Source of the DNA: Sediminibacterium sp.
GTDB lineage: Bacteria; Bacteroidota; Bacteroidia; Chitinophagales; Chitinophagaceae
Assembly (NCBI GenBank): GCA_040403885.1
Contig: JBBAJX010000008.1
Span: forward strand, 13,169-77,168
Direction of reading: 5' to 3'
Length of the DNA stretch: 64,000 nucleotides
How positions within the stretch are numbered: position 1 is the stretch's first letter; every line of letters begins with the position of its first letter. Under the pieces are notes generated by a model, which was not told the DNA's origin, did not search any database, and saw only the letters and a program-made list of their open reading frames with translations. Below are positions 9,322-11,467 of the stretch, in pieces. A program made the position numbers and the translations under genes.

Positions 9322-9349
9322 TAAAAACCCTTGTTTAACAGGGTTTTTT
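9322..9349 (+). terminator. Intrinsic terminator after the response regulator; marks the left edge of the islet
   Basis: AAAAACCCT-TGTTTAAC-AGGGTTTTT. Confidence 0.8.
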
Positions 9350-9564
9350 AATTAGAGACAAAGCCGGAAATTAAATCATTAAAATTTTAGTATAAAATTT
9401 AATAAACATCTTTTGCTAAATTAATGTGAAATATTTTTAGAATATTTTCTAATAAATATTAATATCTCAAGATAAATTTAGAATAGAATCTAAAATTCAA
9501 TATTATTTTTTTACTACTACCCCAATTATTAAAATACTTTAAGAAGAAATAAATTATGATGGAT

Positions 9565-9572
9565 TATGTTTG
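9565..9572 (+). promoter_or_regulatory. Candidate Bacteroidota -7 promoter element for the islet
   Basis: TATGTTTG matches TAnnTTTG, about 38 nt upstream of ATG 9610. Chance matches are plausible in DNA this AT-rich. Confidence 0.4.
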
Positions 9573-9609
9573 ATTAGAAAAGAAATTAAATAAAAATTAA
9601 ACATTCTAT

Positions 9610-10837
9610 ATGATTAAAAAATTCAGCATTGTAATTCTGATTAGTACATTATTTTTTATTGCACTTAGTTCTTGCAATAAAGAAAGTATATTACTCATTC
9701 AAAATGTTAACCAAAATTCTACAAATGAACTAAAATCATTTGTTAGTCAAGTAAAATTTTGGCATGATTCTGTTGTTAGTAATAAAGTAAAAGGCGTAAA
9801 CGTCGAAAATAATGTCAAATCATTTAGCCTAGGACCTGATGATATTTCACCAGCAGCAATTAATTGGGAACTAGCCTATAAGAATTTTGACTCTGCCAAT
9901 GTTGAAAGTTTAACAGTTCCTTTAAAATATAATATTTCGACAGGCGAAATAATACAATTAGATGCTACTTCAAAAAAAGATACAATAAATGGTTATTTAG
10001 TAAGACAGCTACCCGATAGTACATATTATGCTAACCATCCAAATATTTTAGATCTTAATGGATATACTGGAAGTACATTATTTATGACCTTATCGGACAT
10101 TGCTTAAAAATAATAAACTTTAGAAGTGGATCAGTATATTCTAATTCATCAAATCAATCAGAAATTCAAAGTATTCGAACAAATGGCGAGGCAGTTACTT
10201 CTATCAGCCCTTTTATTGCTTATGTTTATAATACGAGGAATTTAAGGCAATTAAATGATTTAAAAATTTTTCAGGTTTTGCAATTAGTCTTCAAAATCAA
10301 TTTTATAATGGAGTAAATTTTTATAATTTTAATGTCATTGTAGGAGGTGGTTCTATTTACAATAGCTCCATATTAGACCTAATTAAAATTCCTAATGGTT
10401 TTTGTGTATTTGGATCATTATCTTTTATAAGTTCTAGAATTGGCTTAGATGAAAATTCAGATTTTTATTTAAGTCAATGGGCGGCAAAAAAGGGTTTATC
10501 ATTAGAAAGTATGAGGAATAGTATTGGCGAAAATTCAAATAATTGGCCATCAGCAGCAGATGCAATAGGTTTATTAAAATCAAATTTTGATGTAACACCC
10601 ATTAATAAGGAAGATATTGAAACTACTGCAAAATTATCCCCTATTTTTACAATAATTAATTGGGGTGATGGAACTGGACATGCTGTTGTTATAGGATGGA
10701 ATAATACTTTAAATACATTATATTATTATGACCCAACTGGAGATATCAAAGAAGTAAATTTTAATTCAAATTCAAATATTTCTTCTAATATGAAATTATT
10801 TTATAGAGTAAATGGAATAAGTCAAAGCAATGAATAA
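9610..10837 (+). pseudogene. Frameshifted lipoprotein (about 409 aa when restored) with a C-terminal papain-like/C39-like Cys peptidase domain
   Basis: Lipobox LSS-C22. Frame 1 runs 9610-10107, frame 3 is open 10059-10316 and frame 2 is open 10259-10837. 1228 nt + 2 = 410 codons. Putative triad: Cys GFCVFG (10403-10405), His GHAVVIG (10679-10681), Asp YYDP (10730-10732). Confidence 0.8.
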
Positions 10838-10852
10838 TACAAATAAGATAAA

Positions 10853-11467
10853 ATGAAAATAATATACTTAATTTCCTTTTTATTAATTAATTCCACATTG
10901 ATTGGTCAGGTAAAAAATGACTCTACCACTTTTGAATACCTTTGTGAGAATAAATATAAGGTTGACTTTGAAATTAGTGATAAATATATTAAATATAATC
11001 ATCATCGTGCTTTTATACCAACATATACTGTATGGTCTTGTATGCCTTTTTACTTTAGCGAGGCTTTAGTAAATAAAATAAATAAAAAAAAATATATAAT
11101 TTATTTTGAATTTGATATTAGTGCAAGTGATCCTGGTGATTATATAAAAAATAATGTCAATCCAAATTATGATAAAAATAAAAATTACCTAGCAGGTCGA
11201 AGATGTCAAATAGAAAGAGATCAAGGGCTAATTAAAGTATTTACAAATTCTGATTTTAATAAATTTAATGCGGATACAATTTTATGCATACGTCCAGATA
11301 GCAATTCTATTAGAAAAAATGATCCTGATTTTAATAATTTCTTATATATTATTATGCATAAAGAGAATATTGGGGATATAATTGTTGGCTTTGCTTATAA
11401 AAAGGAATATGAAATTGAAGTTATGGATGAAATTAAAAACTTATATAAGTTAATTAAATTCAAATAG
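10853..11467 (+). CDS. Hypothetical exported protein (signal peptide), partner of the upstream lipoprotein
   Basis: 204 aa; N-terminus MKIIYLISFLLINSTLIG-Q is SPI-like; starts 15 nt after the upstream stop; same low GC; no family recognised. Confidence 0.75.
   Translation: MKIIYLISFLLINSTLIGQVKNDSTTFEYLCENKYKVDFEISDKYIKYNHHRAFIPTYTVWSCMPFYFSEALVNKINKKKYIIYFEFDISASDPGDYIKNNVNPNYDKNKNYLAGRRCQIERDQGLIKVFTNSDFNKFNADTILCIRPDSNSIRKNDPDFNNFLYIIMHKENIGDIIVGFAYKKEYEIEVMDEIKNLYKLIKFK

Follow-up and report, generated by a model that had tools for sequence, protein, structure and literature searches.

Within a 64,000-nt stretch of Sediminibacterium sp. DNA (assembly GCA_040403885.1, contig JBBAJX010000008.1, positions 13,169–77,168; hereafter, the window), an AT-rich islet at positions 9610–11467 carries two genes. 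The first encodes a lipoprotein with a C39-like cysteine-peptidase domain at its C-terminus and is disrupted by two single-nucleotide deletions, and the second, located directly downstream, is an intact gene for a secreted protein. We propose that the islet is probably an allele of a lineage-specific polymorphic toxin–immunity cassette that Sediminibacterium-like Chitinophagaceae carry between ruvB and a response-regulator gene. Toxin and immunity functions are predicted from the architecture, the swapping of C-terminal domains between alleles, the downstream genes matched to them, orphan copies of the downstream genes, the low guanine–cytosine (GC) content, and the variation of the locus at the strain level, by which polymorphic toxin–immunity systems are defined genomically (PMC3482391). 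For brevity, the two genes are referred to as the toxin gene and the partner gene.

Three-frame translation of positions 9550–10860 shows that the toxin coding path crosses three reading frames. It runs in frame 1 from the ATG at 9610 to ...LNGYTG (up to 10068), in frame 3 from KYIIYDLIGHC... to ...RQLNDL (up to 10262), and in frame 2 from (Q)NFSGFAISLQ... to ...SQSNE and the stop codon at 10837. The read-through product comprises 409 amino acids (aa) and has 53 relatives in the homology search. Nine database proteins are exactly 409 aa long and align over 100% of the restored product with 84–88% identity, and protein P0012 (328 aa, ending at a contig end) is 97% identical to it. In the DNA alignment with two homologous loci, L001 (encoding P0012) and L002 (encoding P0009), both breaks are 1-bp deletions: ACTGGGAAATAC in the references corresponds to ACT-GGAAGTAC after position 10068 of the window, and TTTACAAAAT to TTTA-AAAAT after position 10262. 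The open reading frames (ORFs) 9610–10107 and 10511–10837, which a preliminary description made from the sequence alone had treated as pieces of one gene, thus do belong together, and the latter, 108-aa ORF starts downstream of the triad cysteine and lacks it, as was said there.

The N-terminal domain of the toxin is shared by a family with exchangeable C-termini, an architecture that had been suspected. Partial matches span the first 43–47% of the query, with 51–64% identity in the N-domain, and then continue into different C-termini. Among 50 complete N-domain homologues, 17 have a C39-like C-terminus, and 33 have HExxH metallopeptidase C-termini of at least four types: HEILHSY (13 proteins, one of them with HEVLHSY; P0023 passes the Pfam SprT-like model), HEMIHGY (11), HETVHYG/HESVHYG (7; P0037 and P0019 pass Pfam Tox-MPTase3), and HEISHML/HEIAHAI (2). 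No nuclease, deaminase, or pore-forming C-termini were found among these 50 homologues. The JGI label of P0023, “membrane-bound inhibitor of C-type lysozyme,” was not reproduced, as Pfam yields SprT-like only.

Among genomes representing GTDB species, one per species, a scan yielded 10 loci, nine of them labeled Sediminibacterium, Chitinophagaceae, Chitinophagia, or unclassified Bacteroidetes metagenome-assembled genome; the tenth is a 2-kb contig labeled Akkermansia (L021, CAYYUS010000693.1). Locus L001 (GCA_041730655.1, JBGSBJ010000016.1), which shares 98.7% identity with the window across 3.1 kb, is labeled Burkholderiaceae. Both odd labels are probably binning errors, and apart from them the family appears, by its sequences, to be confined to Sediminibacterium and other Chitinophagaceae.

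The gene downstream of the toxin gene co-varies with the toxin domain, again as had been anticipated. Clustering of the downstream proteins from gene neighborhoods of about 20 loci assigned five toxin classes to five partner families with no exceptions at the level of genomic association. Toxins of the C39-like class are accompanied by the 204-aa partner family with 55–99% identity (the window, L001, L002, L005, L007, L015, L020, and L021), those with HEISHM/HEITHA by a 171–178-aa family (L003, L019, L022, L023, and L024), those with HEMIHGY by a 206–210-aa family (L009 and L017), the HEILHNY toxin by a 189/191-aa family (L018), and the Tox-MPTase3 toxins by a 177/188-aa family (L012–14). The 204-aa and 171-aa families are unrelated (hhalign probability 3%). 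Each partner in all families starts with a signal peptide.

Several loci retain additional partner genes. In L002, the first partner gene is directly followed by a second copy (L002:7864–8373), truncated at the C-terminus to 169 aa, which is 95% identical to the window partner and 83% identical to its own neighbor; by its sequence, this copy looks like an acquired orphan immunity gene. Locus L003 holds a fragment of the L009-type partner, L009 holds an orphan of the L018 type, and tandem partner paralogues are seen in L018 and L024. The C39 type is invariably followed by the 204-aa family, in 9 loci that occupy three genomic contexts, in one of which (L005) the pair adjoins an integrase. There (L005, 4308–5633 and 11238–12743), it is located just 3' of a tyrosine integrase gene, near HipBA and helix-turn-helix genes, and hence this pair would also travel on an integrative island, and not only reside in the RecQ–RuvB slot.

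Comparison by blastn of alleles from the same slot delimits the exchanged segment. Strains with other alleles match the window at 91–94% identity as far as position 9890, that is, approximately codon 94 of the toxin gene, and identity between alleles returns at 11390/11481. The 77-nt end of the partner gene persists with 93% identity behind the partners of metallopeptidase alleles (L009:8007–8083; L017:2111 onward) and is likely a 3' recombination flank or scar. These breakpoints indicate that one allele replaces another through recombination, with the conserved 5' portion of the toxin gene at one end and the 3' flank at the other. No other 1.5-kb stretch in the window has a GC content as low as that of the islet (0.258, with the median of 0.355), in accord with its earlier characterization as AT-rich; the value is 0.264 for the cassette and 0.236 for the partner gene. 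Toxin genes have been lost repeatedly, as nonsense mutations combined with intact partner genes were observed in L019 (5124, AAA>TAA), L020 (5253, TGG>TAG), and L021 (206, GAA>TAA), so that, with the window included, there are four independent knock-outs among about 20 loci.

The triad residues of the toxin domain, which had been recognized in the papain/C39-like order and spacing, are Cys266 (10403–10405, GFCVFGSL), His358 (10679–10681, GHAVV), and Asp375 (10730–10732, YYDP). Within the respective motifs NGxCVFGSL, GH[AC]VV, and YYxD, all three are invariant in 17 sequences with identities down to 42%. In the AlphaFold2 (AF2) model of an intact homologue, the predicted local distance difference test score (pLDDT) of the C-domain is 85–95; Cys266 opens helix 265–278, His358 opens strand 358–365, and Asp375 is situated just past strand 370–374, which in the model is the canonical papain arrangement. 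The top Foldseek matches in PDB are the BpJOS Josephin-type clippase, the C39 domains of ComA (3k8u and 5xe8, both with the template modeling (TM) score of 0.62 normalized to the target and probability 1.00), PCAT1, a CdiA-CT toxin, 9l5u, streptopain, and Tse1; entry 8vp9 is also among the best structural matches to the C39 domains of ComA and PCAT. Of the seven best matches, five are papain-like or C39 peptidases or toxins labeled as such, the others being the CdiA-CT toxin and a USP deubiquitinase. Entry 9l5u, labeled “papain-like cysteine protease toxin/immunity pair” (TM 0.61 to the target, identity about 10%), is presumably the Cpe1/Cpi1 pair considered below.

At the sequence level, the homologue P0013 (48% identical) scores 26.7 bits, with the cutoff of 24, against Peptidase_C39_2 (PF13529) over profile positions 14–142 of 143; PF13529 is matched at E<1 by 5 of the 17 members, and Peptidase_C70 by 3 of the 17. 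The papain fold expected for this domain is therefore suggested by a confident model, by the nature of the best structural matches, their E-values being weak, and by the family match of P0013. The C-domain family is very small, since an exhaustive search of 1.84 billion proteins reached E<1e-3 for only 15 representative clusters; a further homology search with the C-domain profile was swamped by word candidates and added only P0072. The most distant relatives (P0080, P0081, and P0083) are stand-alone proteins of 175–182 aa, whose N-termini resemble leaders of the double-glycine type (e.g., ...SEQKRFIGG). Such leaders suggest that the peptidase additionally leaves the cell, in the form of these proteins, by a route of the bacteriocin type.

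At the N-terminus, the lipobox MIKKFSIVILISTLFFIALSS-C22 fits the generally known consensus [LVI][ASTVI][GAS]C when read by eye. Family alignments show that Cys22 and Lys24 are invariant and Glu25 is conserved in at least 90% of sequences, and hence the lipoprotein signal LSS-C22 recognized in the initial reading stands. The invariant residues of the N-domain are W86, A89, P104, G112, P135-D136, Y139, G154, Y159-D160-L161, and G163; the lipobox, W86/A89, VPL (P104), P135-D136..Y139, GYTG/YDLxG, and the triad residues remain invariant or nearly so in homologues down to 42% identity. The W..A, VPL, and PD..Y motifs are thus as the preliminary description listed them; its GYTG..LFYDL has to be corrected, as the first junction reads GYTG followed directly by KYIIYDL. 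Family scans and a PDB profile search found no match for the N-domain in Pfam, NCBIfam, or PDB, and the only match of the restored toxin and the partner in Pfam and NCBIfam was a weak one, to DUF6567, on the signal peptide. The AF2 model of the N-domain, comprising one long helix and five strands, is only moderate (pLDDT 45–69).

The N/S/G-rich segment described between the two domains is confirmed as a linker, since residues 173–254 are modeled as disordered. Between the N-domain and the Gly-rich stretch, many alleles (P0013–P0017, P0020, P0023, and P0037; approximately 10190–10235 in the window) carry a PPCxxCDLxTVxV motif, both cysteines of which are absent from the subgroup of the window type (TPISPFIAYVYNTR). 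This may be a processing or disulfide element.

The partner ORF starts 15 nt past the end of the toxin gene. Only 17 relatives of its product are in the database, and nothing in Pfam, NCBIfam, PADLOC, or PDB matches it, so that the original view of a 204-aa signal-peptide protein with no recognizable family is upheld. In Bacteroidetes, substrates of signal peptidase I as a rule expose an N-terminal glutamine (PMC5837995). As the invariant Gln19 following the signal peptide fits this Q-rule, the partner is most likely exported.

Table 1. Features of the toxin–partner locus in the window (L003, L009, and L017, homologous loci; X3 and X4, metagenome contigs; X25, a metatranscriptome contig; for the contigs, see the text)
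Feature	Position	Strand	Basis
Toxin pseudogene: 409-aa lipoprotein with a C39-like cysteine-peptidase C-domain and two 1-bp deletions	9610..10837	+	Translation, homologues, DNA alignment
Signal peptide with lipobox L-S-S-C22, followed by C-x-K-E nearly invariant in the family	9610..9675	+	Sequence; family alignment
Family-defining “escort-like” N-terminal domain, residues 23–172	9676..10124	+	Alignments; first ~94 codons common at the DNA level to other alleles of the slot
N/S/G-rich linker, residues 173–254, predicted disordered	10125..10369	+	pLDDT <40; low conservation except a GGGS stretch
Predicted papain-fold (Peptidase_C39_2-like) C-terminal domain, residues 255–409	10370..10834	+	Conservation, Pfam match of a homologue, AF2, Foldseek
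Frameshift 1: one G lost from GGG of the Gly154 codon, with an adjacent A>G change	10068..10069	+	DNA alignment; G present after 10068 in contigs X3, X4, and X25
Frameshift 2: C lost from the CAA codon of Gln218	10262..10263	+	DNA alignment; C or A inserted in contigs X3 and X4
Intact 204-aa secreted partner, predicted cognate immunity protein/inhibitor	10853..11467	+	Signal peptide, invariant Gln19, four conserved Cys
Variable cassette, from the distal N-domain through the linker and the toxin domain into the partner gene, most of which is included	9891..11389	+	blastn with L003 and L009; other strains have the whole segment exchanged at this slot
Last 77 nt of the partner gene; in L009 and L017, where the partner genes are unrelated, they remain behind these as a relic	11390..11466	+	blastn
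Candidate Bacteroidota -7 promoter box TATGTTTG (TAnnTTTG)	9565..9572	+	Pattern scan; 38 nt 5' of the ATG

From these data, we infer the toxicity of the peptidase, its localization and target, and its neutralization by the partner as follows. The toxin is built of four parts, a lipoprotein signal for Sec and signal peptidase II, the conserved N-domain, the disordered linker, and an exchangeable C-terminal peptidase, which is predicted to be a papain-fold, C39_2-like Cys-His-Asp enzyme in the window allele and one of several Zn-metallopeptidases in its sister alleles. Following export, it would be lipidated at Cys22 and held in the outer membrane, at the surface or in vesicles, by the lipid together with the N-domain. 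The peptidase would then attack an extracytoplasmic target, possibly a peptidoglycan peptide or an envelope protein, in neighboring cells devoid of the cognate partner. Since all partners are exported and all toxin domains are peptidases, the toxins would have their site of action in the periplasm or on the cell surface. The producer would need protection in its own periplasm because the toxin crosses it, and there the co-transcribed, Sec-exported soluble partner would neutralize the peptidase. The cell represented by the window, with the toxin gene dead and the partner gene kept, would be an immune non-killer.

Several results weigh against this scheme. The AF2 model of the partner is poor (pLDDT 46) and shows no inhibitor-like fold or interface. 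The Foldseek E-values of the C-domain are weak (0.02–0.3, the best being 0.019, all above 1e-3), which is partly due to the use of the entire 409-aa model as the query; the window protein itself has no Pfam match at E<=1, and the C-domain profile found no match among PDB sequences. No delivery machinery was identified. In Capnocytophaga canimorsus, the surface lipoprotein export signal is C-X-K-(D/E)2-X, and KD alone is insufficient (PMC5080379). The window sequence C-N-K-E-S matches this consensus, which may differ in Chitinophagaceae, in the lysine at +3 and the first acidic residue at +4 and lacks the second acidic residue. Of the surface-routing motif claimed initially, the conserved lysine and one glutamate therefore stand, whereas the second acidic residue needed by the minimal signal (PMC5080379) is missing, and surface or vesicle display of the toxin is plausible but not established. 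Finally, a peptidase-only repertoire is atypical of classic polymorphic toxins and, as far as the sequences tell, also fits a non-antagonistic protease/inhibitor role.

In such a role, a surface-anchored or secreted protease would serve housekeeping or nutrient scavenging, accompanied by its own periplasmic inhibitor or chaperone in the staphopain/staphostatin logic, and domain swaps would diversify the substrate range. Apart from the restriction of all family C-termini to peptidases, it would account for the exported partners, as expected for guarding the producer's own envelope, and many Bacteroidota enzymes are displayed as surface lipoproteins (PMC5080379). However, non-homologous enzyme–partner pairs interchange at one slot between flanks that are 91–94% identical, partner genes are orphaned or duplicated, the enzyme is recurrently lost with the partner kept, and one allele class represents a curated toxin family, Tox-MPTase3. 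These are all signatures of conflict systems, and we consider a plain protease–inhibitor pair unlikely.

An effector whose targets are not bacteria but, for instance, grazing protists, algae, or phage particles, with the partner protecting the producer during export only, might be suggested by the top Foldseek match, a ubiquitin-directed Josephin-type clippase, and by the lipobox proteins with lineage-specific N-domains of Amoebophilus, proposed to be directed at the eukaryotic host (PMC3482391). On the other hand, strain-level replacement of alleles, tightly matched immunity-like partners, and orphaned immunity genes speak for conflict within the species, and no eukaryote-directed domain was found besides the clippase fold match, which has 11% identity. 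This explanation therefore seems to us quite improbable.

Public metagenome contigs from four runs (X1–X4) show that the breaks in the toxin gene are genuine. The X1 contig (depth 20) is identical to the window, and the X2 contig, from another study and another sample (depth 27), differs from it by 3 substitutions; both contain both deletions. The X3 and X4 contigs carry an intact version of the toxin gene. As two independent runs have both frameshifts, and the remaining long ORFs of the window are all unbroken, the frameshifts are biological rather than assembly errors, and the toxin gene is a genuine pseudogene allele circulating beside intact alleles. One could still assume that the frame changes are functional and that the full-length protein is made by programmed frameshifting or phase variation: the first site lies within a short G run (GGG -> GG), all triad codons are still present, and an intact allele shares 98.7% identity with the gene. 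Yet the intact relatives use a single frame, neither site has a slippery heptamer, the second site is a lone C lost outside any repeat tract, two separate compensating +1 events would be required, and other genomes knock out the gene by plain nonsense mutations; we thus find this assumption very hard to believe. An artifact, be it chance ORFs in AT-rich non-coding DNA, long ones being produced at the GC content of 0.26 and the window's own sequences matching no curated family, or assembly-error frameshifts, has a negligible chance of being true, given 53 homologues, conserved full-length 409-aa versions, the same deletions in two independent assemblies at 20–27x, and no other broken genes in the window.

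In the metagenome comparison, the X3 and X4 contigs diverge at 9747–9852, near codons 46–81, into other N-domain variants, e.g., PSIDFDKAY, which implies that several alleles of the locus coexist within single samples. A 274-nt contig from a freshwater metatranscriptome (X25; window positions 9868–10140, depth 2.6) represents an intact allele with the G after 10068. It hints only weakly at transcription and does not suffice for a claim of expression; DNA carry-over is possible. Apparent contig joints at 10592 and 11075 reflect 20-nt stretches that match an unrelated 69-kb contig by chance, and they were disregarded.

Among known systems, the closest general model is provided by polymorphic toxins, whose described classes include a C39/ComA-like papain toxin class (Tox-PL-C39) and Tox-MPTase3 (Zhang, Aravind et al. 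2012, PMC3482391). Shared features are a conserved N-terminal trafficking region with recombining C-terminal toxin domains, a matched gene directly downstream, and orphan immunity genes. On the other hand, the N-domain and five partner families described here match no curated family, the toxin domains are peptidases only, the partners are all exported, unlike most described immunity proteins, which are cytoplasmic, and no dedicated secretion system (types 5, 6, or 7, RHS, etc.) is involved, unlike in many polymorphic toxins.

The SitA/SitI system of Myxococcus xanthus, which operates by outer membrane (OM) exchange, likewise features a lipobox, an “escort” N-domain, a modular C-terminal toxin, and an adjacent immunity gene (PMC5562445, PMC8546572). 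The strain-level variation is similar as well and is consistent with kin discrimination. In contrast to the peptidases and exported partners considered here, SitA toxins are cytoplasm-acting nucleases whose immunity protein, SitI, is not exported (PMC8546572). As a system compared by analogy, SitA/SitI, with its TraAB-dependent transfer, is the nearest functional counterpart, of which the present family is not a member. Homology to SitA escort domains was not detected, as judged by the absence of Pfam matches. We know of no TraA/TraB-type exchange in Bacteroidota, for which no search beyond the window was made.

Within the same phylum, the APD1 and APD2 proteins of Amoebophilus asiaticus also combine a signal peptide plus lipobox with a lineage-restricted N-domain and polymorphic C-termini (PMC3482391). 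Unlike the present family, they were proposed to be host-directed, and no paired immunity genes are described for them in the accessible part of that source (PMC3482391), the comparison being by description only. The C39 bacteriocin-processing domains of ComA and PCAT share the Cys...His...Asp order and are the best structural matches. However, canonical C39 domains are N-terminal domains of ABC transporters that cleave double-glycine leaders, whereas here the domain is C-terminal on a lipoprotein with no ABC transporter fused or adjacent, and the window protein itself falls below Pfam detection. The Cpe1/Cpi1 pair similarly consists of a papain-fold toxin, a papain-like cysteine protease, and an adjacent immunity protein; Cpe1 cleaves the cytoplasmic proteins GyrB and ParE (PMC12136450), whereas the exported partner argues for extracytoplasmic action of the toxin considered here.

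The N-domain, all five partner families, a repertoire restricted to peptidases together with exported immunity proteins, and the taxon are not described in the libraries and literature searched; the kind of system is already known. The preliminary description singled out the islet as a candidate for an undescribed system. With respect to the family, N-domain, and partners this holds, and with respect to the concept it does not, as polymorphic proteins with a lipobox and a lineage-specific N-domain are known from SitA (PMC8546572) and from APD1/2 (PMC3482391). If the toxin–immunity reading holds, a Sec- and lipoprotein-based delivery mode, independent of secretion systems, would be added to antagonism in Bacteroidota, and the N-domain and the five partner families would be defined as a new trafficking domain and as new candidate immunity families, respectively. 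Exported partners would mark the peptidase domains as envelope-directed and thus narrow the search for targets. Sediminibacterium and related bacteria abound in fresh water, and to our knowledge hardly any interbacterial weapons have been described for them. The metagenomes, in which alleles interpreted as killer, alternative, and immune non-killer coexist at one locus, would provide a tractable natural example.

Somewhat speculatively, Chitinophagaceae might practice kin discrimination or antagonism without a secretion machine, with peptidase-only lipid-anchored toxins passing via OM vesicles or lipoprotein transfer to the periplasm of the recipient, where immunity also resides; we regard this extension as possible, if doubtful. 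Were it true, an OM-exchange-like route would exist outside myxobacteria, and immune non-killer genotypes would be frequent and maintained in lake populations.

As regards the setting of the locus, the chromosomal slot has the order RecQ – response regulator – [cassette] – RuvB – LeuRS. A PADLOC scan produced no match. The candidate promoter box upstream of the toxin gene conforms to the Bacteroidota consensus TAnnTTTG. Directly 3' of the response-regulator gene, at positions 9327–9352 of the window, a GC-poor hairpin is followed by a T-run (aaaaccCTTGTTTAACAGGGtttttt) and, by its sequence, looks like the terminator of that gene; if so, the toxin–partner pair would form its own transcription unit.

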